From: Myxococcales bacterium
GTDB lineage: Bacteria; Myxococcota_A; Polyangia; Polyangiales; DASUME01
DNA: 64,000 nt
Direction: 5' to 3'
Assembly (NCBI GenBank): GCA_047601445.1
Contig: JASGJH010000001.1
Span: 7,392,001-7,456,000 of the forward strand
Below the pieces are notes generated by a model. The model saw only the letters and a program-made list of their open reading frames with translations. It did no database searches and was not told the DNA's origin. This document shows, piece by piece, positions 18,217 through 62,831 of this stretch; position 1 is the stretch's first letter, and every line of letters begins with the position of its first letter. Position numbers and translations under genes: made by a program.

Positions 18217-18232
18217 GTCTTTTGAGATAGAC
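18217..18232. promoter_or_regulatory. Island operator GTCTTTTGAGATAGAC
   Basis: GTCY-N8-RGAC between the divergent XRE-cupin gene and aldolase-like operon; TTGACA on the minus strand at 18239-18244. Confidence 0.75.
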
Positions 18233-18237
18233 GACGA

Positions 18238-18933
18238 TTGTCAAGGAAGCAGGAAATGGAAGCGGATCTGAAGCAGCGCCTCGGGGCAGACACGGCTGCG
18301 TTCGTGGCGCAGGTCACCGAACAGGCGTCGCTCTCGTTCAGGGATTTTCGTGATTCCGGCACCATCAGCGTGAACGGCAGCGCGACGTTCATGGAGCGTC
18401 TGCCAGGTCGACCGGAGCTCGTGGTGGTCAGCTACGCCGGCCCCTTCGGCCGCGAGATCTCGGCCCGACCACGCATCATTGCCCTGGACGACGCCGTGTC
18501 CACCGGGGAGCGCGGCCAGCGGCGAGTCGGCCCCTACGGAAAGCTGCTGAGGCGCAGGCCAGACATCACCACTCTGGCGCTGGTGCGCTCGCCGTTCCTG
18601 GGAGCCTGGTCGCAAGCCTTTAGAGCCCTGCCGCTGGGGTCCTCTGGGACGGTGCGGGAGATCCCTGTCCAGCTCGACGAACGCAAGAGCGAACAGGATT
18701 TCATCCTGCAGCTGCTCGAGCTGACCCCTCGCATGCCCGCGGTCTTGAACGCCCGCTGTGGCGCCACCGTGTGGAGTTCACAGGGGCTGCGCGAGGCGGC
18801 CAAGCTCATCTTGAGCCTCGAGGAATGCGCGCGGGTAGCGCTGCTGAGTGAGTCGCTGCGCGGCTCGCGCGGCGACGCGGGCGCCTCGGCACCTGAGTAC
18901 GCGGTGTCGCGGGCGGCTCCGACTACGACCTGA
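18238..18933 (+). CDS. Class II aldolase/adducin-like protein, metal ligands apparently lost
   Basis: RPDITTLALVRSPFLGAWSQA and GATVWS..AAKLILSLEECA resemble the fold, but there is no HxH. Start may be ATG 18256. Confidence 0.65.
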   Translation: MSRKQEMEADLKQRLGADTAAFVAQVTEQASLSFRDFRDSGTISVNGSATFMERLPGRPELVVVSYAGPFGREISARPRIIALDDAVSTGERGQRRVGPYGKLLRRRPDITTLALVRSPFLGAWSQAFRALPLGSSGTVREIPVQLDERKSEQDFILQLLELTPRMPAVLNARCGATVWSSQGLREAAKLILSLEECARVALLSESLRGSRGDAGASAPEYAVSRAAPTTT

Positions 18934-18947
18934 AGCAGGAGAAATCC

Positions 18948-20042
18948 ATGGACGCACTGACCCTCTGGTATACGCGTTGTCCGGCTCCCACCCCGCTCGG
19001 CATCGCGGCTCAGCTCAACTGGCTCGAGTACGAGTTCGCGAGTGATGGCATCGCCGTGCGGTCGCTGCAGGACGTGGCGGACCCGAAGCTCAGGCAGTCC
19101 CACCAGGATCACACGCTGCCCAACCTGTTCCGGCAGGGGGGGGTGGTGCCGGCCATCTACGCGCGCTCACTCGGGCATGCGACGCGGGTGCTCGGCTTTA
19201 CCTGGACGGACGAGGCCCAGCTGCTGTTGGCGCGCGGAGACGGCCCCCTGCTCGATCCAAGCGGCTTGCGCGGCAAGCGGCTCGGCGTGCGCGTCCGGTC
19301 CGGGGCCAAGATCGACGCCTGGCGCGCCACCACCCGGCGCGCCTACGCGGCGGCCCTGAAGGTCGCGGGGCTGTCCGAACGAGACGTGACGTTCGTGGAG
19401 ATCCCCGCCCCGGAGCAGCACGACTTTTCGGAGGTCGCTCGGCACTGGCCCAGCGTGGAGCCGCGCGAGCTCCCTGAGGTAAGGGCCTTGCTAGCGGGCG
19501 AGGTCGACGTGATCTTCCACAAGGGATCGCGGGGCGTCGAAGTGGAGCGCGCGATCGGGGCGCGGCGCATCGTCGATCTGGGCGCGCACGAGAGTTCATC
19601 CGTTCGCAGTGTCGGTGCGCTGCGCTTGTTGACCGCCGACGCCGACCTCATCGAGCGCCATCCGCGGCTCGTGGTGCGCACGCTGAAGCTGGTGCTGAGG
19701 GCCGGTGAATGGGCGGCGAGTCACCCGTTCGCCGCCATGTCTTGCGTGGTCAGCGAGACGGGCTCGAGCGAGCTGGCGGTACGCAGCGGCTACGGCAACC
19801 AGGTAGGAGAGCACCTGCGTACGGACTTCGACGCTCGGGCGATCGAGGCGCTCGACGACTGCAAGAGCTTCCTGCTCGCGAAAGGCTGGCTGAAGAGCGA
19901 CTTTTCACTAAGGGATTGGCTCGCGCCGGATCCGCTCGCGCAGGCCCAACAGGAGCTCTCCGCGCAACGCGAGCGGACTGCGCTGGGCTTGTCGAGCGTG
20001 CTCGGTTGGAGCAACGCTGCTCCTGCGTTTCATCCTCTTTGA
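18948..20042 (+). CDS. DszB-like protein, paralog 1
   Basis: TLWYTRCPAPT, SHQDH, FRQGG; no signal peptide; AGGAG RBS. Confidence 0.82.
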   Translation: MDALTLWYTRCPAPTPLGIAAQLNWLEYEFASDGIAVRSLQDVADPKLRQSHQDHTLPNLFRQGGVVPAIYARSLGHATRVLGFTWTDEAQLLLARGDGPLLDPSGLRGKRLGVRVRSGAKIDAWRATTRRAYAAALKVAGLSERDVTFVEIPAPEQHDFSEVARHWPSVEPRELPEVRALLAGEVDVIFHKGSRGVEVERAIGARRIVDLGAHESSSVRSVGALRLLTADADLIERHPRLVVRTLKLVLRAGEWAASHPFAAMSCVVSETGSSELAVRSGYGNQVGEHLRTDFDARAIEALDDCKSFLLAKGWLKSDFSLRDWLAPDPLAQAQQELSAQRERTALGLSSVLGWSNAAPAFHPL

Positions 20043-20073
20043 TCATCCGTTTCCGGCCCGGCCCGCACCTCGC

Positions 20074-21352
20074 ATGACGTCTTCGATCGATTCGCCCCCT
20101 GCCGCTGCTGCCAGCTCTGCTCCGTTCGCCGCGTTTCGCTCCGCCGACTTTCGCCGCTTCCAGGTCGGCCGCTTGCTCTCCACGCTCGCGCTACAGATCC
20201 AAGGCGTGGCCGTGGGCTGGCAGGTCTACGAGCTCACCGGCCGCGCGCTGGATCTCGGCTTCGTGGGATTGGCGCAGTTTCTCCCGGCCGTGCTGCTGTC
20301 TGCGTTCACGGGGCAAGTCGCAGATCGCTTCGATCGGCGACGGACCCTTGCGCTCTGCCAGAGCTTGCTCCTGCTCTGTTCGGGTGTGCTCCTGCTCGAA
20401 GCCAGGAGGCCGCAGCCTTTCCGTCAACGGCATCTACGCCCTGCTGTTCCTGGTGGGTATCGCCCGCGCCTTCCACGGACCTGCGAGCACCGCGCTCATG
20501 CCCAGCCTGGTCCCAGCGCAGGACTTCGCCAACGCCGTCGCATGGAGCTCTTCGAGCTGGCAGGTCGCCGTGCTCGGAGGGCCGGCGTTGGGGGGCCTTC
20601 TATACGCCACCGGAGGCGCCTCCTGCGTGTACATCGCTGCGCTCTCGTCCCAGGCCATCGCAGTGCTCGTGTTCTCCCTCATCGCGACCAGGCCCAAGCC
20701 CACCATCATCGATGCACCACCCCGCAGCCGGGAGCTCTCCGCCGGCCTGCGCTACATCTGGCGAAACCCCGTGATCCTCGGCGCGATCTCCCTGGATCTG
20801 TTCGCAGTCTTGTTCGGCGGAGCCGTCGCGCTCTTGCCCATCTATGCCCGCGACATCCTCCATGTTGGACCGCAGGGCCTGGGCCTACTGCGCAGCGCGC
20901 CCGCGCTGGGTGCGCTCATGGTGGGCATCTTGCTCGCACATCGTCCCCTCGAACGCCACGCTGGCCACGCCATGCTGCTAGGGGTCGGTGTGTTCGGGCT
21001 CGCCACCATCGCGTTCGGTCTGTCGCGGAGCTTCGTCGTATCAGTCGCCGCTCTGCTGGTGACGGGGGCGGCGGACATGGTCAGCGTGTTCGTGCGACAG
21101 CATTTGGTTCAACTGCGCACCCCAGACGCCATGCGCGGCCGCGTCGCGGCCGTGAACTCGGTGTTCGTAGGCGCTTCCAACGAGCTCGGCGAATTCGAGT
21201 CGGGGCTCGCTGCGACGGCACTCGGTGTCGTCCCAGCCGTAGTCGCAGGCGGGCTCGCGACATGCATCGTGGTCATCACCTGGGCGCTGCTGTTCCCGGC
21301 GCTGCGGCGCGTGGACCGACTCGAGCCTGCGCGCCTTGCGCACCAAGACTAG
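20074..21352 (+). CDS. MFS transporter (EntS/MFS_3-like), frameshifted at about 20418-20420
   Basis: GQVADRFDRR motif A; removing one T from CCTTTCC joins the two ORFs into one multi-TM protein. Confidence 0.9.
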
Positions 21353-21455
21353 CAGCGACCCCATGACCGTCCCCACGGCGTGGCGCTCGATCCATGGCGC
21401 GACCCTCGGCTAGCGAGCGGGAAGCCGACCGCGCTCCGCCGTCAGGGGCTTCGAG

Positions 21456-21860
21456 TTACTCCACTACGCTGAGTACGGAGAGCTTGCTGACACCGGCGCG
21501 GTTCACGGCGGCCATCACCTTCGCTACCAGGCCGTAATTGCTGGTCTGGTCTGCACTGAGGTGGACCGAGAGCTCGCTGCGCTCGGCTCGTAGCCTGCGC
21601 AGTTCGGGCTCCAGCGCGTTCAGCTTTACTTCCGCCTTGTCCACGTAGATGAGCCCCTTGTCGTCGACGCTCACCGTGACCGCAGGTTTCTGCTCTGCCT
21701 TGGCGGTGCTGGCCGTCTGCGGGAGCTGCACCTTGATCGCGTTGCCGATCAGCGGAGCCGTGATGATGAACACCACGAGCAGCACCAGCATCACGTCGAC
21801 CAACGGAGTCACGTTGATCTCGCTCACGACGTCGTCGGAGTCACCAGTTTGAATGGCCAT
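21456..21860 (-). CDS. exbD: Biopolymer transport protein ExbD
   Basis: SEINVTPLVDVMLVLLVVFIITAP. Confidence 0.95.
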   Translation of the reverse strand: MAIQTGDSDDVVSEINVTPLVDVMLVLLVVFIITAPLIGNAIKVQLPQTASTAKAEQKPAVTVSVDDKGLIYVDKAEVKLNALEPELRRLRAERSELSVHLSADQTSNYGLVAKVMAAVNRAGVSKLSVLSVVE

Positions 21861-22579
21861 TAGAGACTCGCTTCCGGTCGAAAGGTGAGACCGCTCGTGT
21901 CGGCGGCTGCGCCGCGGCTGGTGGCGCTCGGGAGCTGACTGCGCAGCGCCGCGCCCACGAAGCTATTGGCGAACTCTTCGAGCTCGGCGGCGAAGGTCTT
22001 GAGCCTGCGCAGGAAGTAGTTGTAGGCGAGCACGGCCGGCACGGCGACGGCGATGCCGAGAGCGGTCGCGATCAGCGCCTCACCGATGGGGCCTGCGACG
22101 ACCTCGAGGTTGGCCGAGCCGCTGCTGCCGATGGCCTTGAGTGCGCTGACGATGCCGAGCACCGTTCCGAACAGGCCCACGAAGGGCGCCGTGGACCCGA
22201 TGCTTGCGAGCAACGCCAGGCCGGACTCGGCACCGCGGCGTTCGCGCTGCAGCTGCTGCTTCAGGCTGCGTTCCAACAAGTCACGACGCAGCTCGAGGGT
22301 TTGCGGCTCCCCGCTGTCGCCCGTCTCGCTATGAGTCCAGGCGTCGGCGCCCACCAGGGCTACACGCGCAACGGGACCTTCGTGCCGCTTGACTTCGTCG
22401 CTGGTGGGTAACGAGCGCAGCTGCGCGAACGCTTTGCCGAACGACTCGGCCTGACGAGAGAGGCGCCGCTGCTGAAATACCTTCACGATGACGATGGCCC
22501 ACGTGAGGGCAGACGCCGCGACGAGAGCCACGAACGTGGCGTTCACGAACAAGAGAGTTAGCTTCTCGGACATGTGCAA
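21860..22579 (-). CDS. exbB: MotA/TolQ/ExbB proton channel
   Basis: IGSTAPFVGLFGTVLGI, GPIGEALIATALGIAVAVPA. Confidence 0.94.
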   Translation of the reverse strand: MHMSEKLTLLFVNATFVALVAASALTWAIVIVKVFQQRRLSRQAESFGKAFAQLRSLPTSDEVKRHEGPVARVALVGADAWTHSETGDSGEPQTLELRRDLLERSLKQQLQRERRGAESGLALLASIGSTAPFVGLFGTVLGIVSALKAIGSSGSANLEVVAGPIGEALIATALGIAVAVPAVLAYNYFLRRLKTFAAELEEFANSFVGAALRSQLPSATSRGAAADTSGLTFRPEASL

Positions 22580-22624
22580 TGACTCCGGGGGGTTGTTCGC
22601 GCGCCGAGCAGGGCGCGCCTCGAC

Positions 22625-23453
22625 TCACTGAATGCGAAACTCGAATGGCACGGAGACCCAACCGGCGATGGGTTTGCCACCCTGGCTCGCCGGCACGAAG
22701 CTCCAGCTCTTCACGACCTCGAGGGCGGCCTCGTCGAGCGCCTCGTGGCCTGCCGAGACCTGCACGCGGGCGCTCTCGACCTTGCCGTTGGGCAGCACTC
22801 TCACGCGCAAGATCACGCGGCCTTGCAGGCCGTCGCGCAAGGCGGTGCGGGGATAGGCCGGGCGGGGGTTGTTCAGGTAGTTGGCGCCTTCCTTGGCCTC
22901 GATCACGGGTGGAGGCGGTGGCGGCGGAGGAGGAGGCGCCGGCGGGGCCACCACCGGCTCTGGCGCCGGTGGAGCGAGCCCCGCCGGCGCGGGGGGGAGG
23001 TCACCGTCTTCGCCTTGCGGAATGTCGGTTCCGACCTCCTCGGGCGTCTTCGCCGTTTCGGCGGGCGTCGCACTCGGCGTGAGACGTGGCACTGGCTTGT
23101 GGCTGGGGCGCGGCTCGGGCGGCGGGAGCTTCTGCTCCTCTTGCTTGGGCTCGGGCTCGGGCTCTACCTGCTTGGGCGGAGGAGGCGGCGGAGGCGCGAG
23201 CTCGATTCTCGATTTGCTCCGGAATCGGGCGCACTGGCTCCGAGGCGCTTACGTGCAGCACCCACACCAGTGATCCGTGCACGGCCAGCGAGAAGGCGAA
23301 CACGCCCCGCGCGAGGCGGGCGCTGGGCTCGGCCGCCGGTGGAATCGAGATCAATGCTGGTGCGGTCCCGACGGCGGCGCGCGCGCTGCTGCGTGCGTGC
23401 GCGGGGATGCGTCGGCTCGAATCGGGCGACTTCTGCTTGCTCGCTTGCGACAT
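22625..23453 (-). CDS. tonB: Energy transducer TonB, frameshifted at about 23206
   Basis: TM motif SLAVH, Pro/Glu-Pro linker, C-terminal YPRTALRDGLQGRVILRV; removing one base at GATTC joins the halves. Confidence 0.9.
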
Positions 23454-23519: not shown

Positions 23520-23535
23520 GTCTACTATGACAGAC
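23520..23535. promoter_or_regulatory. Island operator GTCTACTATGACAGAC (tonB-exbBD)
   Basis: Palindrome lies over the -10 region of a minus-strand promoter with TTGACA at 23545-23550. Confidence 0.78.
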
Positions 23536-23657: not shown

Positions 23658-23673
23658 GTCTTGTATAGTAGAC
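23658..23673. promoter_or_regulatory. Island operator GTCTTGTATAGTAGAC (nitroreductase operon)
   Basis: Contains -10-like TATAGT; about 30 nt before ATG 23703. Confidence 0.8.
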
Positions 23674-25396: not shown

Positions 25397-26752
25397 CTAC
25401 TCGCCCGCCGCGGATCGAGGCACGTCGCGGCGCACCAGGCCAGGTCGCACCAGACCCAAATGCTCGCGCAGCGTGGATCCCTCGTACTCGCGGCGCATCA
25501 ATCCGCGCCGTTGCAGCTCGGGCACGACCTTGTGCACGAAGCTCACGAAGCTGCCCTGGGCCAGAGGGGGCAACGGCGGGACCACGTTGAAGCCGTCCGC
25601 GCCGCGCTCCACGAACCACTGTTCGATGGTGTCGGCGATGGTCTTCGGAGAGCCATGGACCTGGAGGTGTCCGCGCGAGGTCGCAAAGCGATACACGAGC
25701 TGACGGATGGTGAGGTTCTCGCGGCGAGCGAGCGTGACGAGCTGCCTGAAGCGACCCTTTCCATTGGCCGACTCCGGCAAATCCGGAAGCGGCCCGTCGA
25801 GGTCGTAGCCCGTGAGGTCGGCGCCGCCGAGCTGAACACCCTTGGAGAAGTCGATCAACTCCTGGAGCTCGGCGAAGAGCTCCTTGGCCTCGGAGTCGGT
25901 CTCGCCCACCACCACGGAGAGACCTGGCGTGATCTTGAGCTGGTCCTGCGAGCGCCCGTACTTTGCCATGCGTCCTTTGACGTCGGCGTAGTAGGCCTGC
26001 GCGTCGGCGAGGGTCTGCGCCGAGCAGTAAGTCATCTCCGCCAGCCGCGCAGCGAACTCGCGTCCAGTCTCGGAATTGCCTGCCTGCACGAACACGGGGT
26101 GTCCCTGAATCGGACGCGCCATGTCGAGCAGACCTTCGGAACGGAAGTACTTGCCCGTGTGTTCGACGGGGTTGGCGGCCTGCACGTCGAAGAAGACACC
26201 GCTGGCGCGGTCCGGAGCGTGGAAGGCGTCGTCTTGCCATGAATCCCAGTAGTTCCTTGCCAGCTCCACGAACTCGCTGGCGCGTTGGTAGCGCTGTTCG
26301 TGTTCGAGCGGCTCCAGGCCGAAGTTGGCGCTGGGAGCCTCTCCCAGAGAAGACACGATGTTCCAACCCGCGCGGCCTCCGCTGATGTGGTCGAGCGAGC
26401 TGAACTGACGAGCGATGTTGTAGGGGTGGGAGAAGTTGGTGTTGACCGTGGCGATCAGGCCGATGCGCTGGGTGCTCACGGCGATGGCCGAGAGCAACGT
26501 CATCGGCTCGAACTGGTAGCTCGCTCCGCGCTTCGCGAGCGAAGGCAGGTCGCTCGCCGAGCGGCCGATGAAGTCTGCCAGGAAGAAGGAGTCGAACTTG
26601 GCCTGCTCCGCGAGCTGGGCCAATTTGATCCAGAGCGCGAGGTCGGGTTTGCCCGTCGCGCCCTCATTCCCATGGTGCCGCCAGGCCTCCGGGTGGTGGC
26701 CGAAGCGTTGGAAGAACACGTTCAGGATCAGCTTGCGCGAACTGGCACTCAT
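25397..26752 (-). CDS. NtaA/SnaA/DszA-family LLM flavin-dependent monooxygenase
   Basis: AEQAKFDSFFLAD, PYNIARQFSSLDHISGGRAGWNIV, QAGNSETGREFAA, VPELQRRGL. Confidence 0.95.
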   Translation of the reverse strand: MSASSRKLILNVFFQRFGHHPEAWRHHGNEGATGKPDLALWIKLAQLAEQAKFDSFFLADFIGRSASDLPSLAKRGASYQFEPMTLLSAIAVSTQRIGLIATVNTNFSHPYNIARQFSSLDHISGGRAGWNIVSSLGEAPSANFGLEPLEHEQRYQRASEFVELARNYWDSWQDDAFHAPDRASGVFFDVQAANPVEHTGKYFRSEGLLDMARPIQGHPVFVQAGNSETGREFAARLAEMTYCSAQTLADAQAYYADVKGRMAKYGRSQDQLKITPGLSVVVGETDSEAKELFAELQELIDFSKGVQLGGADLTGYDLDGPLPDLPESANGKGRFRQLVTLARRENLTIRQLVYRFATSRGHLQVHGSPKTIADTIEQWFVERGADGFNVVPPLPPLAQGSFVSFVHKVVPELQRRGLMRREYEGSTLREHLGLVRPGLVRRDVPRSAAGE

Positions 26753-26785
26753 CGGTTCCCTCCCGCGCCGCCGGTTACGGGGCGA

Positions 26786-50909: not shown

Positions 50910-50913
50910 CCAG

Positions 50914-51966
50914 GTGAACCCGACCGCATTCTCGAGCCCCACAGCGCCCGGCCAGCGGCTATGGAGCCGCTTCAAGCGCAGGCGCCTCGGCTACTACAGT
51001 CTGCTCGTCTTTGTCGGTCTGTATGCCTTCAGCTTGGTGGGCGAGTTCGTCTCGAACGACCGACCGCTGGTGGTGCGCTACCAGGGGGAATGGTTCTTCC
51101 CGCTGTTGCACGACTATCCGGAGTCCACCTTCGGAGGGGCCCTGCCCATCGCGGCGGATTACAATGATCCATTCATCGTCGAGCGGCTCAAGAGCCCGGG
51201 AAATTGGGCGCTCTACCCACTCAATCCCTACTACTACGATACCCTCAACTACTTCTCGACCGCGGCCCACTTTCCAGGGCCCCCCTCGCGCGAGAACTGG
51301 CTAGGGACCGATATCGCGGGCTACGACATCGCGGCCCGCCTGCTGTACGGCTTCCGCGTATCGGTCACCTTCGCGCTGGCCCTCACCGTCGTCGGCATGG
51401 TGTTGGGTGTTCTGATGGGCGCCGTCCAGGGCTACTTCGCGGGCCGCGTCGATCTGCTGGCACAACGCCTGATCGAGGTCTGGGGATCGATGCCGGAGCT
51501 GTACCTCCTGATCATCTTCGCTTCGCTGTTCGACCACAGCTTTTTTCTGCTGTTCGTGTTGCTCTCGCTGTTCGGCTGGATGCACCTGTCGGAATACGTG
51601 CGAGCCGAGGTGCTGCGCAATCGGCAGCTCGAGTATGTGAAGGCGGCCCGCGCGCTCGGGCTCTCCAGTCGGCAGATCATCTGGCGTCACGTGCTGCCCA
51701 ATAGCCTCACGCCCGTGATCACGTTCCTGCCCTTCCGGATGAGCGCCGGAATCCTGGCGCTAGCCAGCCTCGACTTCCTCGGCCTCGGCGTGACCGCGCC
51801 GGCGCCGAGCCTCGGGCAGCTGCTGACGCAGGGCAAAGAGAACCTCGATGCCTGGTGGATCTCGGTCTTCACCTTCGGAGTCCTCGTGATCACCTTGCTC
51901 TTGCTCACCTTCATCGGAGACGCGTTACGCGACGCGCTGGATGCGCGTCTCTCGGAGGCACCATGA
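50914..51966 (+). CDS. yejE: Peptide-type ABC permease, YejE-like
   Basis: RFKRRRLGYYSL, EFVSNDRPL, NWLGTD, EYVKAARALG. Confidence 0.9.
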   Translation: MNPTAFSSPTAPGQRLWSRFKRRRLGYYSLLVFVGLYAFSLVGEFVSNDRPLVVRYQGEWFFPLLHDYPESTFGGALPIAADYNDPFIVERLKSPGNWALYPLNPYYYDTLNYFSTAAHFPGPPSRENWLGTDIAGYDIAARLLYGFRVSVTFALALTVVGMVLGVLMGAVQGYFAGRVDLLAQRLIEVWGSMPELYLLIIFASLFDHSFFLLFVLLSLFGWMHLSEYVRAEVLRNRQLEYVKAARALGLSSRQIIWRHVLPNSLTPVITFLPFRMSAGILALASLDFLGLGVTAPAPSLGQLLTQGKENLDAWWISVFTFGVLVITLLLLTFIGDALRDALDARLSEAP

Positions 51967-53568: not shown

Positions 53569-53578
53569 TCGCAGCGCC

Positions 53579-55618: not shown

Positions 55619-55804
55619 GCTTCGCGAGTAAAACGCGCTCACACGAGTTCGCGCCGGTGCGTCGTCCGGCGCAACGCGACCGCGGGCCTGCGTCACCCTG
55701 AGCGTCTGACCGCACGAACGATGCCCGAAACTCTCGGGCGCGTAACGCACGTGTTGCGTCGTCCGCGCGCGCTCACAGTGCCTGCATTAAAGCCTCACTT
55801 GAGT

Positions 55805-55820
55805 GTCTTGTATACTGGAC
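55805..55820. promoter_or_regulatory. Island operator GTCTTGTATACTGGAC (TonB receptor-TolC)
   Basis: Contains -10-like TATACT; about 65 nt before GTG 55887. Confidence 0.82.
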
Positions 55821-55886
55821 GATCGTCCTTTGCTGTGCTTGGCTGCGCGCATCAACCGCTACGCCATCCATTCACGAGGAACCGAA

Positions 55887-58514
55887 GTGAAAACCCCCCG
55901 AACCAGTGCACGGGCCCGCGCTCGTTGGGCCGTAGCCGTGCCGTTGCTCCTGACGGCCGCAGGCTCCATCTCGACCATGTCTCGCGTCCACGCCCAGGCA
56001 GCTCCCGAAGCGCCTGCGCCCGTGGTGCCCGCGCCGAGCGAGCCGCCTCCAGTGGCTCAGCCCGCGCCCGCGGCTCCAGCTCAGCCCGCTCCGGCTGCGC
56101 CCCAGAGCCCCGCGCCGGCGCCCGAGCCTGCGCAGGCCGCACCCGCGCCAGCTGCTCCGCCAGTACCACCGGCGTCGGTGGAGGCCCCAGTTGCCGCTCC
56201 GCCCGCGGCGCCCGTCGCGGCGCCGGTGCAGTACGAGCCGCAGCCCGTCGCCGGGGATGTCGCGTTGGAGGCCGGCGTCGAGCCTGCTCCCGTGCAAGCC
56301 GAGGTGGAGGCCAACGAGCCTACCAAGGTGCTCTCGGACGTGGTCGTGACCGCCCAGAAGCGCGAAGAGCGCGCCCAGGACGTGTCCACCGCCATCACGT
56401 CGGCCAACACCAAGCAGCTGCAGGCCGCCAACCTGGTCGGGTCCACCGACGTCGAGCGCCTCACGCCCAACCTGTCCGGTCAGCAGAGCGGAACGCGCAG
56501 CGCACGACCGCGCTGGTTCTTGCGCGGCATCGGCTCCAACGATCCGTCGGTGAACCTCGAGTCGCCGACCGGCGTGTACCAGGACGAGGTGTATATCGCG
56601 TATGGACCGCTGCAGTCGTTCCCGCTGTTCGACCTGGAGCGGGTCGAGGTCCTCAAGGGACCGCAAGGCACCCTGTGGGGCAAGAACACCACCGGTGGCG
56701 CCATCCATTTCGTCTCGAAGAAGCCGAGCTTCACGCCGAGCGGCTACCTGCGCGGCACCATCGGCAACTACGGCACGCGCGGCATGGACGGCGGCTTCGG
56801 CGGCCCCGTGATCGGCAAGGTGTTGGCGGCTCGTGGCGCCTTCTCGTACGAGGGGCAGGAAGGCTGGGCCCGTAACAAGTGGGACGACACTTATGGCCCG
56901 CAGTACCAGGACATCGCCACGCGTCTCTCGTTGCTCGCCGATTTGGGTGAGAACCTGGAGATCAACGTCACCGGTCGCTTCCGCAACCTGAACAACGCCG
57001 CTGGTATCACGTACCCGATCGGGGCGTTGCCGGGTGGCGAGATTCAGCAGTACCCGATGGCACCCAAGACCTATACCCCGTCCTATGGGAAGCATCCCGA
57101 GGCGACCGACCCTTTCTGGCGCGGACCCACCACGGGCATCCTGCGTAGCGAAGGCGCCACGGCCACCATCAACAACTACCTGGGCGACTACACGCTGACC
57201 TCGGTCACCGGCATCGACAACGCGAAGAACACCACCAACACCGAGGCGCACTGGCCAAACCCGACCTTCGACCGGGCCGCCAGCTACGCCAACATCAGCT
57301 CGTTTCAAGCTACCCAGGAGCTGCGCATCACGTCGCCCCAGAAGGATCGCTTGAGCTGGATCGCCGGCTTCCACTACTTCTACTGGGACCTCGACAGCGA
57401 CGCGGCCGCGGCCAACTTCAGCCCCACCGCCATGCGGCAGAGCTTCCAGGACAACACGTTCCACCAGAAGAACAACGCGACCGCAGGTTTCGTCAGCGCC
57501 AAGCTGAGGATCCTCGACGGTCTCTCGATCACCGGCGGCCTCCGCTACACGTACGACAAGAAGAAGATCTCGGCGGTGCGCCGCAGCCAGCGTGGCGCCG
57601 CAGTGAACTACCTCGACGACCAGGCCTGGTACGACCCCGATCTGCTCGCCAACGATCCCGATGTGATCAAGAAGCGCGCCCACAAGGGCTGGTCGCAGGT
57701 CACCTTCGACGTCACGCCTGAATACAAGATCACGGACGACGTGCTGGCGTACTTCAAGTTCGCCAAGGGCTTCCGCGCCGGTCAATTCAACCCCACCATC
57801 CTGGCCGCGGTCGGCGACCGCCCCGCGAACCTCCCGGTGGCCAACCCCGAGGTCCTCTACGACTGGGAGCTCGGCCTGAAGACGTCTTGGTTCGACGATC
57901 GCTTGATCGCCAACGTGGCCGCCTTCTACTACCTGCTCAAGGACGCGCAGCTCAACGTGCAGCAGCCGAATCCCATGGGCATTCCGGGCGCCAACACCAG
58001 CTCGGTGCAGAACGCCGCGGGCGGCAAGATCAAGGGCATCGAGCTCGAGCTCGAGGCGCTGCCCTTCGACACCATCCGCCTGCGCTCGGGTATCGGTCTG
58101 CTGAAGACCGAGTACACCGACTTCCAAACCTTCCAGGGCACCGAGGCGGTCGACGCCAGCGGCAACAAGTTCTACCGCACGCCCTCGTTCTCTGGCTCGT
58201 TCGGCGCCGAATATCGGCTCCCCATCGGTGAGACCCAGGCCGTCACGGCCGGTACGGACTGGACGGTTCGTAGCCGCATCTATCACAACGCCGTGGTTCA
58301 GGACGACAAGCAGCAGCAGACGCCGGCCTACGCGCTCGGCAACGTCGAGCTGCGCTACTCGTTCGCCAACGAGCGCTTCACGCTGCAGGGCTACGTGCGC
58401 AACGTGGCCGACACGACCTACAGGATCCTGTCCACCGTCGTGAACTCGGGCGCCTATCCCACGTACATCGGTCCGCCGCGTACGTACGGTCTGCAGCTGA
58501 TCGCGAAGCTCTGA
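55887..58514 (+). CDS. TonB-dependent outer membrane receptor
   Basis: Signal peptide, Pro/Ala linker, TonB box DVVVTAQKR, plug ERVEVLKGPQGTLWGKNTTGGAI, terminal PRTYGL. Confidence 0.95.
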   Translation: MKTPRTSARARARWAVAVPLLLTAAGSISTMSRVHAQAAPEAPAPVVPAPSEPPPVAQPAPAAPAQPAPAAPQSPAPAPEPAQAAPAPAAPPVPPASVEAPVAAPPAAPVAAPVQYEPQPVAGDVALEAGVEPAPVQAEVEANEPTKVLSDVVVTAQKREERAQDVSTAITSANTKQLQAANLVGSTDVERLTPNLSGQQSGTRSARPRWFLRGIGSNDPSVNLESPTGVYQDEVYIAYGPLQSFPLFDLERVEVLKGPQGTLWGKNTTGGAIHFVSKKPSFTPSGYLRGTIGNYGTRGMDGGFGGPVIGKVLAARGAFSYEGQEGWARNKWDDTYGPQYQDIATRLSLLADLGENLEINVTGRFRNLNNAAGITYPIGALPGGEIQQYPMAPKTYTPSYGKHPEATDPFWRGPTTGILRSEGATATINNYLGDYTLTSVTGIDNAKNTTNTEAHWPNPTFDRAASYANISSFQATQELRITSPQKDRLSWIAGFHYFYWDLDSDAAAANFSPTAMRQSFQDNTFHQKNNATAGFVSAKLRILDGLSITGGLRYTYDKKKISAVRRSQRGAAVNYLDDQAWYDPDLLANDPDVIKKRAHKGWSQVTFDVTPEYKITDDVLAYFKFAKGFRAGQFNPTILAAVGDRPANLPVANPEVLYDWELGLKTSWFDDRLIANVAAFYYLLKDAQLNVQQPNPMGIPGANTSSVQNAAGGKIKGIELELEALPFDTIRLRSGIGLLKTEYTDFQTFQGTEAVDASGNKFYRTPSFSGSFGAEYRLPIGETQAVTAGTDWTVRSRIYHNAVVQDDKQQQTPAYALGNVELRYSFANERFTLQGYVRNVADTTYRILSTVVNSGAYPTYIGPPRTYGLQLIAKL

Positions 58515-58530
58515 CCGACGGATCCCTGCC

Positions 58531-59916
58531 GTGAGCGCTCGCCGTACACTGCGCGTCGCTGCGCGCTGGCTCGTCCTTTCTGCCTTCGCGGCAGGCGGGG
58601 CGGGCCGTTCGCGCGCCCAGGATGTTCCAGGCGCCCACCAGGCCTCCTCACGTGTTTTGCGGCTCGAGGACGCCCTACGCATCGCCCGCGAGCGCCAACC
58701 GGCCTTGCGCAAGGTGCGCGCCGAGCATGATCAAGCCGAAGCTCGCCTGATCGCCGCGCGCGCTCCGCTGTTGCCCCAGCTCACGGGGACGGCGAGCTAT
58801 CAGCGCACGACGGGCAACTTCGTGCCTCGTCCGGGCCAGGTCCCGCGCACGGTCCCGGGGGCGACTGGCTCGAACGCGAGCCCCAACCGGGACCCGTATA
58901 CGCTGTACAACTTCTTCAACTTCGGCATCACGGCCAGCCAGCTCATCTATGACTTCGGAGCCTCGAGCGGCTCTTACCAGGCGAACCGCGAACTTCTGCG
59001 GGCCCAGGAGAGCGAGAGCGAGGCCACCTCGCAGGACGTGACTGCCCAGGTCAGCATGGCGTTCTTGCAAGCGCGTGCCTACCAGGAGCTCGTGGCCGTG
59101 GCCCGCGAGAACCTGGCCAACACCGAGCGCCACCGCGACCAGGCCCAGAGCTTCGTTAGCGCGGGCGCACGACCCGAGATCGATCTGGTGCAGGCCCGAG
59201 CGGACGTGGCGAACGCACGCGTGAAGCTCATCGAGGCAGAGAACGCCTACGCCATCGCCATCGCGGCCCTGGAGCAGGCCATGGGAAGGGACGACGCCGA
59301 GGCTTACGAGCTCTCGGAGGAGAGCGTGCCTCCGGTGCCATCGGAGGAGCAGGCGAGCTCCGAGCTCTACGCGACCGCGCTGCGCGCGCGTCCGGACCTC
59401 GCTGTGTTCGAGCACCGCGCACGTGCTCAGCGCCTGACGATCCGCGCCAACAAGGGCGGCTACGGTCCCGCCCTGAGCGCATCGACAAGCCTGACATCGG
59501 GCGGCACGCAGCTCGACGCTTTGGTGACCAACTGGAACGCCGGAGTGCTCCTGGTGTGGCCACTGTTCCAGGGGGGAGCGAGCCACGCGCGCGTGCTCGA
59601 GTCCCGCGCGGTGCACGAGAGCCTGCTCGCTGACCAGGACGCGGCGCGCCTCGCCGCACGCTTCGAGCTCGAGCAGGCCCGACTGGGGGTGCGCGCCGCC
59701 AAAGCCGTGGAGCAGGCGGCCCAGGAGGTGCAGGTCAACGCAGAGGAGCGTCTGCGGATGGCCGAGAAGCGCTACGCCGCAGGGGTCGGCAACGCCATCG
59801 AGTTGGGCGACGCGCGGGTCGCCTTGGCTACCTCGCAAGCCCAGCGCGTGCAGGCCACGTACAGCCTGGGCGCGGCGCGGGTATCCCTGCGCAAGGCGCT
59901 CGGGGACCTTCCCTGA
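58531..59916 (+). CDS. tolC: TolC-family outer membrane efflux protein
   Basis: LEDALRIA, LLPQL, SQLIYDFG, WPLFQGG, RYAAGVG. Confidence 0.9.
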   Translation: MSARRTLRVAARWLVLSAFAAGGAGRSRAQDVPGAHQASSRVLRLEDALRIARERQPALRKVRAEHDQAEARLIAARAPLLPQLTGTASYQRTTGNFVPRPGQVPRTVPGATGSNASPNRDPYTLYNFFNFGITASQLIYDFGASSGSYQANRELLRAQESESEATSQDVTAQVSMAFLQARAYQELVAVARENLANTERHRDQAQSFVSAGARPEIDLVQARADVANARVKLIEAENAYAIAIAALEQAMGRDDAEAYELSEESVPPVPSEEQASSELYATALRARPDLAVFEHRARAQRLTIRANKGGYGPALSASTSLTSGGTQLDALVTNWNAGVLLVWPLFQGGASHARVLESRAVHESLLADQDAARLAARFELEQARLGVRAAKAVEQAAQEVQVNAEERLRMAEKRYAAGVGNAIELGDARVALATSQAQRVQATYSLGAARVSLRKALGDLP

Positions 59917-59976: not shown

Positions 59977-60753
59977 TCAAGCGGAGTGCACGACACGCGG
60001 GCCCACGCCGAGCTCGGCGAGCAGCATGCGGCGGCACTCCATGAACTGCCGGTCGCTGCGGTCCCTGGGCTGCGCGGAGGTGATCGCGTGGTCCACCACC
60101 ACGCGTCCGTGGCGCAGCACGAGGACGCGGTCGGCCAGTCGAATGGCCTCGTCGACGTCGTGGGTCACGAGCAAGACAGCGGGGTGGTGTTGGGCCAGCA
60201 GCGTGCCCACCAGATCCTGCATCTGGAGGCGCGTGAGCGCGTCGAGCGCAGCGAACGGTTCGTCGAGCAAGAGCAGCTCCGGCTCCCGCACCAGGCCTCT
60301 CGCAAGCGCAACGCGCTGCGCCTCGCCGCCCGAGAGGGTGGCCGGCCAGGCCTGCTCGTGGCTCGCGAGGCCTACTTCGGCCAACGCACGGCGCGCGACC
60401 TCCTTGGTGGTCTCGTTGCGCCGCTGTCCGATCGTCACGTTGTCGAGCACGCGCATGGAGGTGACCAGGCGCGGCTCTTGATAGACCACGGTGCGGGACT
60501 TGGGGACCAGGACCGACCCTTGATCCGGCAGCTCCAAACCGGCCAGGATCCTGAGCAAGGTGGTCTTGCCGGTGCCGCTCGCGCCGAGCAGCGCCACGAA
60601 CTCGCCGCGCGCGATGTCGAGGTCGACCTCGTCGAGCACGACCTTGGCGCCGAAGCGCTTGGAGATCTTGCGGATGCGCACGGCGGGGCCGCTCGGGCGC
60701 GTCGGCTTGAGGTCGGTCTCGGCCAGTCTCATGGGCTTGATCTCCGCGCTCAT
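59977..60753 (-). CDS. ssuB: Sulfonate-type ABC ATPase
   Basis: GASGTGKTT, WPATLSGGEAQRVALAR, LDEPFAALDALTR, VTHDVDEA. Confidence 0.9.
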   Translation of the reverse strand: MSAEIKPMRLAETDLKPTRPSGPAVRIRKISKRFGAKVVLDEVDLDIARGEFVALLGASGTGKTTLLRILAGLELPDQGSVLVPKSRTVVYQEPRLVTSMRVLDNVTIGQRRNETTKEVARRALAEVGLASHEQAWPATLSGGEAQRVALARGLVREPELLLLDEPFAALDALTRLQMQDLVGTLLAQHHPAVLLVTHDVDEAIRLADRVLVLRHGRVVVDHAITSAQPRDRSDRQFMECRRMLLAELGVGPRVVHSA

Positions 60754-61742
60754 CCGCGCACCGTGGTGTAGCGACGCCAAGGCATCGTGACGCGCTCTAG
60801 GGCGCGGATGAACAAGTCGAAGGCGATGCCGAGCAGCGCGTAGAGCGCCACGCACAGCACCATGTAGTCCTGCCGGTAGTACTGCTTGGCCAGCAGAACC
60901 AGGTATCCGATGCCCTTGGTGGTACCGACCTGCTCGGCGGCGATCAAGCCCACCACGCTGATCGCGAGGCAGATGCGCAAGGCCATCAAGAGGTTGGGCA
61001 ACGCCGAGGGCAAGATCACCCGCAGCAACAAGCCTGCGCCGTTGAGTCCGAAGCTGCGCGCCGCCTCGACCACCTTGCGATCGACGCCACGCACGCCCAG
61101 ATAGGAGTACGCATACATCGGCATGGCAGACGAGGACGCGATCAACACGACCTTGAATTGGTCGCCGATGCCGAACCAAGAAATGTAGAGCGGGACGACC
61201 GCCAAGAAGGGCACGGCCCGCAGCATCTGCATGGTCGGATCGACCAGCTCCTCCCCGAGCGCAGAGAGCCCAGCCACCACGCCCAAGAGCAGCCCGGCCG
61301 TCACGCCCAAGCTCACGCCCAGCGCCGCCCTGACGAGCGACGCAGCCAGGAACTCCTGCAGCTGCCCGCTTTGTTGCAGCTCCACGAAGGCGAGCGCCAC
61401 GTCGCGTGGAGACGCCACGATAGAGCTCGGGATGGCTCCCGTGGCCGAACCAATCCACCAGGTAAGGCCCAACGCGAGCGGAACGCTCACGCGCAATCCG
61501 AGGGACAGCCAGCGCGGCCGCGATCGCGCGCCCAGGTAGCGAGGTTGCTCGAGGTCGCCCCCGAGCGCCTCGTCCTCCTGGCTCTGCTCGCGGGCGAACT
61601 CGCCGGCTTCGACCGCGCGTGGCGCCGCCGGCTTGGTGGCGGACACGCCGCGCTCGTCCTCCGGGCCGGCCGGGAGCCTCTCGGAGACGGGACGCGCGAC
61701 GGACACCGCGCTGGACCTGCGTTCTGTGCTGATGCCGTTCAT
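60750..61742 (-). CDS. ssuC: Sulfonate-type ABC permease
   Basis: DPTMQMLRAVPFLAVVPL, WFGIGD, GVRGVDRKVVEAARSFG. Confidence 0.88.
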   Translation of the reverse strand: MNGISTERRSSAVSVARPVSERLPAGPEDERGVSATKPAAPRAVEAGEFAREQSQEDEALGGDLEQPRYLGARSRPRWLSLGLRVSVPLALGLTWWIGSATGAIPSSIVASPRDVALAFVELQQSGQLQEFLAASLVRAALGVSLGVTAGLLLGVVAGLSALGEELVDPTMQMLRAVPFLAVVPLYISWFGIGDQFKVVLIASSSAMPMYAYSYLGVRGVDRKVVEAARSFGLNGAGLLLRVILPSALPNLLMALRICLAISVVGLIAAEQVGTTKGIGYLVLLAKQYYRQDYMVLCVALYALLGIAFDLFIRALERVTMPWRRYTTVRG

Positions 61743-62761
61743 GGTGTGACTTGCTTTGCGCGCGCGGCCGCTTCGATGTCGAAGACCACGTTGTCCACGC
61801 TGAGGTTGCGATCGATCGAATGATTCTCGAAGAACAACTTGATCACGTTCGCGACGCGCCCGCGATCGTGCGGGTTCGGGACGCGCGGGACGGGCGTGGC
61901 CCGGGTCTCCGCCAGCTTGTACTCCAGCCGCTCCCCCGAGACCGCCGAGGGGCCCTTGTCGGTGAACACGTTCACGAACTTCTCCGGCTGCGCGTGGGCC
62001 TCCTGCGCGAGTCGCTGCGCGACCCGGAGCAGCGCCTGGAAGGCTGCCGGGTTCTTGGCCAGTACCTCGGCGTTGGCGGCCAGGATGGTGACGTCGTCCG
62101 AATCGAGCTCCGCCTCGTAGGCGATCACGTGGGCGCCGTTCTTCACCGCCGTGGAGAAGAACACGCCGAAGGTCGACCAGGCGTCGATCTTGCCGGTCGC
62201 GAAGGCGGCAGCGGCCTCGGGCGGCTGAATCGGCACGCGCTCCACTTTGTCGACGGGGATGTGGTGGTTGGACAGCAACTTCAAAAGCAAGTAGTCCCCA
62301 TGGGCCGCGGCGTTTACGGCCACGCGCTTGCCGATCAGGTCCTGAGGAGACTTGATGGGGCTGTCGTTGGGCACGATGATGCCCGCCTGGCGCATGTCGG
62401 ACGGATCGCCGATCGCGTAGATCTTGAAGTTCAGGTTGTGCGAGAGCGCCCCCACCACGGGGCTGATCGCGCCGCCCGAGGCATTGATGGCGCCCGTGTT
62501 CATGGCCTCGAAGTTGGCGCTGAAGGCGCCCGCGGCCGGCACCCACTCGATCTTGGCGTTCACCTTGGCCAGCTCGGGCTCGAGCAGCTTCTCGTGCTTG
62601 GCGTAGGCCCAGATGCCCGCGTTCTCCGGGTCGGAGAAGCGGAGCGTCACCGGCTCGTACCCACCCACCACAGGCTCGCGGCGGCGGTCGGCTGCGTTGC
62701 CCTTGCTGCAGGCCACGAGCAGCGCAGCCAGCAGGAGGGGGTGCAGGCGCGCGGCGCGCAT
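61739..62761 (-). CDS. ssuA: SsuA/NrtA-family substrate-binding lipoprotein
   Basis: Lipobox LLVAC, DSPIKSPQDLIGKRVAV, AFATGKIDAW. Confidence 0.8.
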   Translation of the reverse strand: MRAARLHPLLLAALLVACSKGNAADRRREPVVGGYEPVTLRFSDPENAGIWAYAKHEKLLEPELAKVNAKIEWVPAAGAFSANFEAMNTGAINASGGAISPVVGALSHNLNFKIYAIGDPSDMRQAGIIVPNDSPIKSPQDLIGKRVAVNAAAHGDYLLLKLLSNHHIPVDKVERVPIQPPEAAAAFATGKIDAWSTFGVFFSTAVKNGAHVIAYEAELDSDDVTILAANAEVLAKNPAAFQALLRVAQRLAQEAHAQPEKFVNVFTDKGPSAVSGERLEYKLAETRATPVPRVPNPHDRGRVANVIKLFFENHSIDRNLSVDNVVFDIEAAARAKQVTP

Positions 62762-62815
62762 GGGCAGGCGGCGAAGCGCGTGGTTGGCGGAGCTCCGAGT
62801 GTGATTCGTGCGCCT

Positions 62816-62831
62816 GTCTAGCATGCAAGAC
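62816..62831. promoter_or_regulatory. Island operator GTCTAGCATGCAAGAC (ssuA-C-B)
   Basis: Near-perfect palindrome, 55 nt before ATG 62761. Confidence 0.72.

Follow-up and report, generated by a model that had tools for sequence, protein, structure and literature searches.

What reads the 16-bp palindrome GTCY-N8-RGAC that recurs before the genes of an organosulfur island in the 64-kb stretch of DNA analysed here (the window), and to what end? Our main reading, to which we give a probability of roughly 80%, is that the palindrome serves as operator for an XRE-cupin protein of the SutR family, the product of gene 17396-18052, a predicted dimer that would repress organosulfur scavenging by covering promoters when sulfur is plentiful.

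The palindrome in the window and in the genome

The original prediction counted 12 copies of the palindrome in the window, and all 12 are present where it placed them, the copy at 39962 carrying one mismatch and being followed 3 bp on, at 39981, by a second weak copy. The sites, to which no strand is assigned, are:

18217..18232, operator between the regulator and an aldolase-II-like/DszB-like/MFS operon (ATG at 18256, 23 bp away; regulator start 164 bp away)
23520..23535, operator before tonB-exbB-exbD (minus-strand TTGACA 15 bp before the core hexamer)
23658..23673, operator before nitroreductase and GNAT genes (pattern match, start distance)
26795..26810, operator before an NtaA/DmoA-family monooxygenase (TTGCAA-N16-TATGAT geometry)
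34302..34317, operator before HlyD-RND-RND efflux genes, start 34232 (pattern match, start distance)
38054..38069, operator before two ABC exporter genes on the minus strand (pattern match, start distance)
38133..38148, operator before the DszB-like protein at 38233 (pattern match, start distance)
39962..39996, one-mismatch operator (39962-39977) and weak tandem copy (39981-39996) before gene 39392-39937
47438..47453, operator before an NtaA/DmoA-family monooxygenase (frameshifted) and two ABC exporters
48630..48645, operator in the spacer of two divergent DszB-like genes, of which the one on the right heads an ABC importer operon
55805..55820, operator before a TonB-dependent receptor and a TolC-like gene (pattern match, start distance)
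62816..62831, operator before an ssuABC-like importer (pattern match, start distance)

The strict pattern matches exactly 13 times in the window against 5.37 expected, a count of 13 or more being reached in 0 of 100 shuffles; 11 of these matches belong to the 12 sites above, and the two extra ones, at 6037 and 14645, have GC-rich cores and lie inside coding frames. With one mismatch allowed, the pattern is uninformative in the window (90 matches, 105 expected). The copies at 34302 and 38133 are exact reverse complements, as had been noted, and the claim that every site lies within about 100 nt of a start codon holds for all 12, which stand 23-84 bp from an ATG or GTG when start codons are picked by hand. 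The 34302 site seems intragenic because the upstream ABC gene carries a frameshift, and the 26795 site overlaps the final codons of an RND gene. A weak candidate proposed at 16399 is unsupported, as nothing in that spacer scores above 4.1 bits (at 16444), against 17.6-26.4 bits for the 12 sites. The refined consensus reads GTC(T/C)W-(G/T/C)(T/C)AT(A/G)(A/C/G)-W(A/G)GAC.

The genes behind the sites are arranged as follows:

18256..21366, plus strand, aldolase-II-like gene, DszB-like protein and MFS transporter (frameshifted)
21456..23453, minus strand, tonB (frameshifted), exbB and exbD
25397..34232, minus strand, NtaA/DmoA monooxygenase and HlyD-RND-RND efflux system
34370..37971, minus strand, two ABC exporter genes, the second frameshifted
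42317..48567, minus strand, DszB-like protein, NtaA/DmoA monooxygenase and two ABC exporters
48723..59916, plus strand, DszB-like protein, peptide-type ABC importer, TonB-dependent receptor and TolC-like protein
59977..63962, minus strand, ssuABC-like importer and DszB-like protein (the operator of the latter, 64071, lies beyond the window)

Nearly every promoter of the island had been said to bear the motif, and of the 18 putative transcription units that the gene layout, as we read it, suggests between 14.5 and 64 kb, 15 do have a strong site; one of these sites, 64071, falls just outside the window. No strong site accompanies ssuE-sfnR, glmS or the XRE gene at 16692. Sites occupy 12 of 28 intergenic stretches in the extended island versus 11 of 5,122 in the rest of the genome.

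A matrix built from the 12 window sites returned 14 further sites in the genome, all intergenic and of at least 18 bits, which brings the total to 26, most of them directly ahead of sulfur-scavenging genes; in simulated DNA no hit of the same matrix reached 14 bits, and strict-pattern counts are at most 4 per strand in the 250 other genomes of the phylum searched. The genome-wide scan had been expected to return cys, ssu and tau genes. It did yield more ssu- and dsz-like genes but not the core cys genes, as sir, cysC, sbp, metY and cysK of this genome have no site by the matrix scan; relatives, unlike this genome, do have sites before cys genes. A few strong sites (3653838, 4036217 and 9364512) have no sulfur-linked gene, or no gene at all, downstream.

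An XRE-cupin of the SutR family as the probable reader of the motif

The candidate regulator and its neighbours occupy the left edge of the island:

17396..18052, minus strand, XRE-cupin transcription factor of the SutR family, "clade A", the likely operator binder (HTH_3 plus Cupin_2, SutR homology, co-distribution)
16692..17303, plus strand, degenerate XRE-cupin paralogue "C", no operator upstream (alignment, tree, orthologues)
16645..16660, plus strand, sigma54-like -24/-12 element (GG-N10-GC) before gene C
15215..16378, minus strand, sigma54 activator, which from its context we take to be SfnR-like, followed by ssuE at 14593-15147; no strong operator

The 17396-18052 protein joins an N-terminal XRE helix-turn-helix (HTH_3, PF01381) to a C-terminal cupin (Cupin_2, PF07883), is homologous to E. 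coli SutR over its full length (34% identity over 182 aa, E 2e-35) and is the best SutR match within this genome; its closest structure, by sequence and by fold, is 1Y9Q. Residues H157, E163 and H197 are invariant across clade A. One source automatically gives some 18% of close homologues the name "regulator of sulfur utilization", a count of names only. Across ten genomes of the genus, a clade A orthologue (65-73%) is present in G000, G002, G003, G005 and G006, whose exact-pattern counts are 17, 1, 11, 7 and 16, and was not found in G001, G004, G007, G008 and G009, where the counts are 0, 2, 1, 0 and 0. In G002 one stretch was scanned, and it has a pair of intergenic sites that score 16.6 and 21.6 bits.

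Of the 178 confirmed orthologue loci, the best 80 were scanned with the window matrix, which picks out 61 sites around them versus 3-7 in simulated DNA; 37 of these 80 loci have a site, and 43 have none of 12 bits or more. An untrained word count over the same best 80 of 178 loci ranks GTCT-N8-AGAC first (20 versus 1.3 expected) and AGAC-N4-GTCT third (10 versus 1.3).

The motif varies with the protein. In sister clade B, which is slightly closer to SutR (37%), the top palindrome is TCCG-N6-CGGA (18 versus 1.2 expected), and G stands at position 5 in 14 of 28 half-sites versus 4 of 142 half-sites from the genus of this genome. Among genomes without clade A, a site lies upstream of sbp in 12 of 18 with clade B versus 0 of 7 with neither clade (p=0.005, the kin not being independent). 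Clade A by itself does not predict sbp sites, which occur in 3 of 16 stretches from clade-A genomes (6 of the 16 having less than 60 bp of intergenic DNA) versus 12 of 25 from genomes without it; the remaining sbp sites were explained by clade B after the fact, with the clade-B test set before its result was seen.

The E. coli ydcO-sutR spacer holds the two best clade-B matrix matches within 12 kb, one of which is the centre of the strongest SutR ChIP-exo peak (S/N 1345; PMC8464067 Dataset S4), and the best clade-B match lies no more than 2.5 bp from the peak centre in 6 of 8 further SutR peaks scored. Since the matrix of this genome misses those 8 peaks, the operator is linked to SutR by way of clade B. 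SutR peaks, clade-B sites and window sites can all be aligned in one register, GTNN..AT..NNAC, within a 16-bp palindrome. The sites had not been recognised as a described myxobacterial sulfur regulon, and we too found no account of how myxobacteria regulate sulfur acquisition in the literature searched, but the motif does belong to the SutR operator family; we consider it likely a SutR-family operator whose specificity has shifted and which has spread to govern a large organosulfur regulon. The choice of the 17396-18052 protein as best candidate is backed by co-distribution, the de novo motif, co-variation and the SutR peaks.

Other proteins that might bind the sites

There is a small chance that another XRE-cupin binds instead, either the paralogue at genome position 3967225 or the product of gene C (16692), acting on its own or paired with the 17396 protein in a heterodimer. 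The 3967225 paralogue lies near metY-metA-cysE and keeps an intact clade-B-like helix (SGVSR..LGQIE), yet that helix is of clade-B type while the sites of this genome are of clade-A type, its cupin is degenerate, and no intact clade-B protein was found with it as query in G005, a genome with 7 sites. Gene C has orthologues in G003 and G005, upstream of which the spacing of the sigma54-like element is also visible by eye. A predicted A+C complex lends weak support (0.54 versus 0.00 for the best control, contacts agreeing at 64% or more between runs, partner pLDDT at least 71). The mark it passed is also passed by 116 of 157 solved complexes and by 2 of 215 mismatches, but among those passing, scores of 0.60 or less account for only 18 solved complexes and for both mismatches. 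C has, however, lost the recognition helix and the cupin metal residues (His/Glu/His).

We assign a similarly low probability to an unrelated global regulator (Rrf2/CymR-, LysR/CysB- or MocR/TauR-like, or the local sigma54 activator) binding the sites, with the XRE-cupin a fellow traveller of sulfur genes. The XRE-cupin always lies amid sulfur genes, so linkage alone is unable to separate these readings, and 10 of the best 80 of 178 orthologue loci contain Rrf2 genes. The cysK-linked Rrf2, however, is found in 10 of 10 genus genomes, including 5 without the motif, and none of the Rrf2 loci has a site; an Rrf2/CymR regulon was rejected, as Rrf2 neither tracks the motif nor is preceded by it. 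A CysB/Cbl regulon was likewise set aside: no CysB orthologue was found in this genome (best match 28%), and the motif is a 16-bp even palindrome, LysR-type sites reading T-N11-A. The sigma54 activator has a 60% relative in G004, a genome poor in the motif, and no orthologue of it was found in G005 and G006, which are rich in it. The genome does have MocR-type genes, and the TauR box CTGGACYTAA shares the word GGAC with the motif, but TauR binds direct repeats (PMC5320631) and the motif here is an inverted repeat. An unrelated regulator would, moreover, leave the co-variation with XRE clades and the SutR peaks unexplained.

A sulfur-sparing gene set behind the sites

Gene context and composition tie the SutR-family protein to sulfur. 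Neighbours in the best 80 of 178 orthologue loci include sir (16), sbp (14), cysC (12), ssuA-like genes (11), metY (10), cysK (7) and cysH (6). Median Cys+Met content is 1.33% in the island versus 2.71% genome-wide (p=1e-10), and in relatives 1.0% in 45 genes behind sites versus 2.1% in 63 others of the same stretches (p=1e-4). When island proteins are paired with their paralogues, the island member has less Cys+Met in 14 of 18 pairs and more in 3. Such sparing would, indirectly, also fit induction of the whole set when sulfate is limiting. The "LWYTRC" proteins match Rhodococcus DszB (PDB 2DE2) with E 8e-16 and an aligned N-terminal Cys, and all 6 DszB-like copies in the genome stand behind a site. 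By Pfam/NCBIfam they are NMT1/SsuA-like binding proteins, below the SsuA cut-off; given the distant match to DszB, those of the window are putative desulfinases. The original proposal of one dimeric regulator, acting by repression in a sulfur role, is backed by this comparative evidence, sulfur sparing included.

Promoter geometry and a proposed mechanism

TTG at -35 spacing occurs at 17 of 69 oriented sites versus 2 of 69 in antisense (sign test p=7e-4), an orientation bias consistent with repression by promoter occlusion; among island sites only 4 of 13 have it, and the TA..T asymmetry is not significant (19 versus 11, p=0.2). At 61 of 135 sites there is an extra GTC half-site at a distance of 4 or 5 bp, versus 13 at control gaps of 8 or 9 bp. 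This neighbouring half-site was absent from the original prediction.

We envision that the 17396-18052 protein would bind the palindrome as a dimer and occlude the sigma70 -10/-35 elements, with the half-site 4-5 bp away probably serving a second dimer. The co-repressor would be a sulfur metabolite (cysteine, methionine or a relative) held at the cupin metal site. Starvation would then jointly release uptake (the TonB system, SsuABC-like and peptide-type ABC importers), C-S cleavage (flavin monooxygenases and DszB-like desulfinases) and export of the desulfurised carbon skeletons (RND, ABC and MFS). This co-repressor and starvation-release step is the least certain of the mechanism, and we put it at about even odds.

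It is very improbable that the same protein binds but activates, or that an organosulfur inducer frees it where we would have a sulfur co-repressor hold it. The annotation of E. coli SutR is that of a dual regulator, Pseudomonas XRE-cupins are modelled in PMC7901475 as being released upon sensing a pathway precursor, and most island sites lack a clear -35 geometry; the sites, however, lie 23-84 bp from starts and over the -10 element where geometry is visible, and their targets, diverse and sulfur-lean, better fit a general starvation signal than a single inducer. That the sites are chance matches or mere sigma70 -10 boxes in AT-rich spacers is already contradicted by the controls: the cores do contain TATAAT-like hexamers and the first matrix was trained on these very sites, but the 14 untrained intergenic sites, the empty simulated DNA, the concentration in island spacers, the scarcity of strict matches across the phylum and the untrained recovery of the motif in other genomes all argue against it.

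Implications and comparison with known systems

If the SutR-family reading is true, myxobacteria gain a sulfur-starvation switch with a concrete regulator, operator and target list, and gene context throughout a bacterial class ties the poorly understood SutR family to sulfur metabolism. A large regulon would belong to a family whose described members are local repressors. SutR, clade B and clade A would form a three-step series of matched helix and operator variants, useful for XRE recognition rules, and the operator would tag likely sulfur-starvation genes (DszB-like, aldolase-II-like, DUF2325, glutathione transferases and nitroreductases). A bolder scheme, which we regard as unlikely in its entirety, would make SutR-family XRE-cupins the master sulfur-status repressors of Polyangia, replacing CysB/Cbl or CymR, with a sulfur amino acid bound at the cupin metal as their co-repressor; clade A would have captured its 26-site regulon in this genus, and the degenerate C, expressed from a sigma54 promoter that the adjacent activator controls, would act as a dominant-negative partner pulling the repressor off its operators.

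CysB/Cbl (LysR), CymR (Rrf2) and Pseudomonas SfnR govern sulfur-starvation regulons whose targets include ssu, tau, sfn, dsz-like and TonB uptake genes and whose proteins are sulfur-lean; the kinds of target and the sulfur-lean proteins are alike here, whereas protein family and site differ. The Vibrio cholerae HTH_3 regulator 1Y9Q, the best sequence and fold match (~32% identity), holds D-methionine and Zn in its cupin pocket, and we found no operator or regulon for it in the literature searched. Likeness to the 1Y9Q dimer may be what let the A+C complex prediction pass.

The Pseudomonas XRE-cupins ErfA, PsdR and PauR, as the accessible text of Trouillon et al. 2021 (PMC7901475) presents them, bind palindromes as dimers and repress core promoters by occlusion, but are local and specialised, with 1-12 binding sites versus 26 here; that text describes no sulfur-starvation regulon, and the signal predicted here differs in being a co-repressor. 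E. coli SutR (YdcN), an XRE-cupin "regulator of sulfur utilization" with a sulfur link (PMC5210515, PMC5934670), shares the two-domain build, a 16-bp even palindrome in equal register and a site in the regulator's own divergent spacer. Its peaks read approximately GT(G/C)CGTTATAACG(C/G)AC, and operator specificity differs, the site being GTCT(A/T) here versus GT(G/C)CG for SutR with its CGTTATAACG core, as does the helix (SRAALSQIE here versus SKAMLGQIE). SutR, finally, has one dominant peak (S/N 1345 versus 141 for the next) and most of its peaks within genes, whereas here 26 strong sites stand before ssu/dsz-type genes.

Predicted operator sites across the genome

The pattern GTCY-N8-RGAC matches the window 13 times against 5.37 expected, a count reached in none of 100 shuffles; 11 of these matches are sites of the original prediction, and the other two (6037 and 14645) are GC-rich and coding. 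Allowing one mismatch renders the pattern uninformative (90 matches vs 105 expected). The palindrome noticed in the sulfur island is real: a weight matrix trained on the 12 listed sites and applied to the whole 9.5-Mb genome detects 26 sites of at least 18 bits, compared with zero scores of at least 14 bits in 3 Mb of fourth-order Markov DNA, and all 14 sites outside the training set are intergenic in a genome that is 87% coding by gene caller. A site occurs in 12 of the island's 28 spacers, vs 11 of 5,122 in the rest of the genome. All 12 listed sites lie 23–84 bp from a start codon (starts hand-picked), as claimed, and by our reading of the layout a site precedes 15 of the 18 transcription units from 14.5 to 64 kb, in keeping with a site at nearly every promoter.

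The weak candidate at 16399 falls away: it scores below 4.1 bits and is unsupported, and its rough score against the sister-regulator (clade B) motif comes from a matrix built on a hand-made pattern that let in coding matches. Spacers upstream of orthologues of the neighboring sigma54 activator in the congeners G002 and G003 hold no site; a more distant activator in G003 does have one (21 bits). We did not count 37389, which is coding, in a GC-poorer stretch and just below 18 bits, nor is the 1-Cys peroxiredoxin a target, the site at genome position 3653838 being downstream of its gene. The strong site at 4036217 is flanked by two convergent genes and precedes no called gene; it is perhaps a relic or the mark of a short missed gene. 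Because no site above 7.4 bits occurs at 7028000–7050000, that region is not directly under the operator. Isolated matches in G004 and G007, genomes without the regulator, were treated as background: one is coding, one precedes an ABC/urea-type gene (16.7 bits) and one (13.4 bits) has a LysR gene on one side and a gene for a putative flavin oxidoreductase on the other.

Genes behind the sites

Targets in the window comprise NtaA/DmoA-family monooxygenases, SsuA-like and peptide-type ABC importers, a TonB system with receptor and a nitroreductase, together with RND, ABC and MFS exporters. Proteins with the LWYTRC signature, which match the desulfinase DszB, are all behind sites (6/6), five of the six within the window. 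Beyond the window, sites precede SsuD-like monooxygenases, DoxX together with a glutathione transferase, and one gene each of aldolase-II-like, SsuA-like and 5'-nucleotidase-like type; a few further genes behind sites have no link to sulfur. The genome scan had been expected to reach core cys genes; sir, cysC, sbp, metY and cysK here are without a site. Almost all sites of the congeners G003, G005 and G006 are intergenic, and the genes that follow them include TauD, monooxygenases, SsuA-like proteins, an arylsulfotransferase, glutathione transferases, nitroreductases and TonB receptors.

Further clusters of sites (genome positions)
7456071–7460833 (window 64071–68833): continuation of the island beyond the window, with a further four sites, each upstream of one of these: a DszB-like gene, a small gene, a glutathione transferase/ABC exporter pair, an SsuD-like monooxygenase
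1387437–1391705: second small cluster, four sites, with aldolase-II-like, DszB-like and two SsuD-like monooxygenase genes

A second glmS in the island (40048–41880; 42% to its counterpart at genome position 8573788) has no site of its own and may be transcribed by read-through from the upstream operon. The stretch L006:1203–1679 gave no match in Pfam, NCBIfam or PDB, and a plasmid search returned 91 records, all below 60%. Four island genes are split over two frames, probably by assembly indels in this single-contig genome.

Two-frame genes in the window
20074–21366: MFS
22625–23453: TonB
34370–36008: ABC exporter
46019–47377: monooxygenase

The island proteins (14593–63962) are strongly depleted in Cys and Met. 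Median Cys+Met is 1.33% in island proteins vs 2.71% in the genome, and about 1.5% in targets outside the island (p=0.003; 12 rows, one gene twice). For relatives the figures are 1.0% (45 genes behind sites) vs 2.1% (63 neighbors) and 2.9% (105 unrelated genes). Set against their paralogues, island proteins are lower in 14 of 18 pairs and higher in three. SsuE, ExbB, the C-terminal part of TonB and a glutathione transferase just outside the window have no Cys or Met past the start; some DszB-like proteins retain one such residue. Sulfur sparing of this kind is an independent sign of function.

Anatomy of the predicted operator

The consensus is GTC(T/C)W-NYATRN-W(A/G)GAC. This genome and its relatives together give 135 sites after removal of duplicates (270 sides). 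An extra GTC half-site stands 4 bp off on 43 sides and 5 bp off on 23, vs 2–9 sides for each other gap; 61 of the 135 sites have an additional half-site 4 or 5 bp away, and full tandem copies 20 bp apart occur at two loci. For the 69 sites with a single downstream gene, TTG lies at sigma70 −35 distance from core positions 7–12 in 17, vs 2 on the opposite strand (p=7e-4), while −10-type asymmetry inside the core falls short of significance (19 vs 11). Only 4 of 13 island sites have the −35 geometry. The operator would thus cover the −10 element of some of the promoters.

The probable regulator

Regulatory genes of the island
15215–16378 (−): sigma54 activator
16692–17303 (+): degenerate XRE-cupin paralogue, C
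17396–18052 (−): XRE-cupin of the SutR family, clade A, the candidate regulator

Co-distribution, an untrained palindrome count and the SutR binding peaks all point to the XRE-cupin at 17396–18052 as the best candidate binder, as originally proposed; from this comparative evidence we put the probability that it binds the operator and represses at roughly 0.8. Among ten genus genomes its orthologues are found in exactly G000 (this genome), G002, G003, G005 and G006, where the pattern counts are 17, 1, 11, 7 and 16, vs 0–2 in the other five; these assemblies are 72–99% complete, so that a missing orthologue means one not found. G002 has two good sites in the one stretch examined. The best 80 of 178 confirmed orthologue loci are almost all from Polyangiaceae, Polyangiales, Myxococcales or delta proteobacteria, which makes the present genome a likely myxobacterium, and in these 80 the neighbors are genes of sulfate uptake, sulfate reduction, cysteine and methionine. 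Around the same 80 loci the window matrix finds 61 sites (at 37 loci) vs 3–7 in controls, and an untrained word count ranks the same palindrome first. A search of 250 further genomes across the phylum found orthologues of at least 50% in 12, and no genome exceeded 4 strict matches per strand, a per-genome count too insensitive for small regulons; therefore the large regulon looks genus-specific among the genomes searched, and small local regulons look more widespread.

Other binders fare less well. The distribution of the sigma54 activator does not match that of the motif. It is labeled SfnR-like by context, after SfnR of Pseudomonas; CysB, Cbl and CymR govern sulfur-starvation regulons elsewhere. 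The motif is followed by no Rrf2 group, and sites are missing from every Rrf2 locus; a search of the genome for a CysB orthologue found none. MetJ, TrpR and HutC-type boxes were also considered; the operator flanks do not fit Met boxes. Separately, a LysR gene with 28% identity to CysB (genome positions 8914365–8915249) is transcribed divergently from the site-less sulfite reductase operon and may regulate the core sulfur pathway here.

A sister clade with a variant site

In a family of 121 genomes (f17), clade A is present in 39. Sites precede sir in 7 of 20 stretches from genomes with clade A vs 1 of 19 from genomes without (p=0.044), and precede sbp in 3 of 16 vs 12 of 25, a result at first against assignment to the XRE-cupin. 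The sites in genomes without clade A are of a variant form, RTCCGYTATARCRGAY. We predicted, before the result, a sister XRE-cupin in genomes with this variant, and it is present in 4/4 unassigned site-bearing genomes and in G335, which has a weak site. The sbp site occurs in 12 of 18 clade-B genomes vs 0 of 7 with neither clade (p=0.005, overstated because several genomes are congeners; G287 was assigned to clade B from a match that is partial, at 55%). An untrained count around clade-B genes ranks TCCG-N6-CGGA first among palindromes (18 vs 1.2); therefore the site changes with the clade. Of 28 clade-B half-sites, 14 have G at position 5, vs 4 of 142 from the own genus. The present genome combines clade A with clade-A-type sites, and no intact clade B was found in it.

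Clade B itself occurs in roughly 40 of the 121 genomes (L279–L308, L199–L238), often upstream of DUF2325 and sbp and accompanied by the variant site RTCCGTTATAACGGAY; with both clades, DUF2325 is repeatedly among the genes behind sites.

Proposed mechanism

In sequence and fold the best match of the regulator is 1Y9Q of V. cholerae, which has D-methionine within the cupin pocket (PMC7901475) and contains Zn (PMC2684688). H157, E163 and H197 are invariant across clade A; an AlphaFold model (pLDDT 69, 8 rows) added nothing to the 1Y9Q match. The XRE-cupins studied in Pseudomonas are dimeric repressors with 1–12 sites that occlude core promoters (PMC7901475). With sulfur plentiful, the regulator would repress its targets, and a sulfur metabolite, at about even odds, would be the co-repressor; starvation would release uptake, C–S cleavage and export of the leftover carbon skeleton.

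Paralogue C is without a recognition helix and without the cupin metal residues. It is divergent from the sigma54 activator, and a sigma54-like GG-N10-GC element precedes it (element and gene together, 16645–17303); by eye its orthologues in G003 and G005 have the same element. The tree was built by the quick method; C, D and E have long branches in it, and their placement is unsure. A predicted complex of the regulator with C has weak support, with a score of 0.54 vs 0.00 for the best control (agreement in at least 64% of contacts; pLDDT of the partner at least 71). Of 157 solved complexes, 18 reached the mark with a score of 0.60 or under, and so did both of the mismatches that passed; the score may reflect resemblance to the 1Y9Q dimer. 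That C is an anti-repressor of the regulator is speculative.

Comparison with known systems

The observation is real, and the predicted operator is well supported by comparative evidence. The full texts searched, among which subscription papers are few, yielded no paper on such a myxobacterial regulon. PMC5210515, PMC4797297, bioRxiv 10.1101/2021.06.10.447994, PMC5934670 and PMC5320631 were also consulted; the XRE protein of the methylcitrate pathway (PMC5373536) is not relevant. A SutR box may already be shown in Yamamoto et al. 2015, in the YdcN logo of PMC8464067 or in RegPrecise.

E. coli SutR (YdcN) offers an experimental anchor, with 34% identity to the window protein and 37% to clade B. 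In the K-12 ydcO–sutR spacer (L332:6091–6138) a 16-bp palindrome occurs twice, as GTGCGTTATAGCGTAC and GTCCGTTATAACGCAC, at a distance of 32 bp; within 12 kb these copies match the clade-B motif best. In PMC8464067 (Dataset S4), the strongest YdcN ChIP-exo peak (S/N 1345, next 141) is centered on the first copy, GTGCGTTATAGCGTAC. Eight of the 62 peaks were scored beyond the strongest, and in six the best match of the clade-B matrix lies within 2.5 bp of the peak center; the other two, and the dppA peak, show a related palindrome by eye. A family member thus binds a palindrome of the same length and register in vivo, which makes the XRE-cupin assignment much likelier than linkage alone would. 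Three of the eight peaks needed no genome-version coordinate offset, and for the rest we assumed the offset. Because the matrix of this genome does not score the SutR peaks examined, clade A would have a shifted specificity. In the strict sense the operator does not share the specificity of SutR; in its working it resembles the SutR/XRE-cupin operators, and in the broad sense it belongs to their family.
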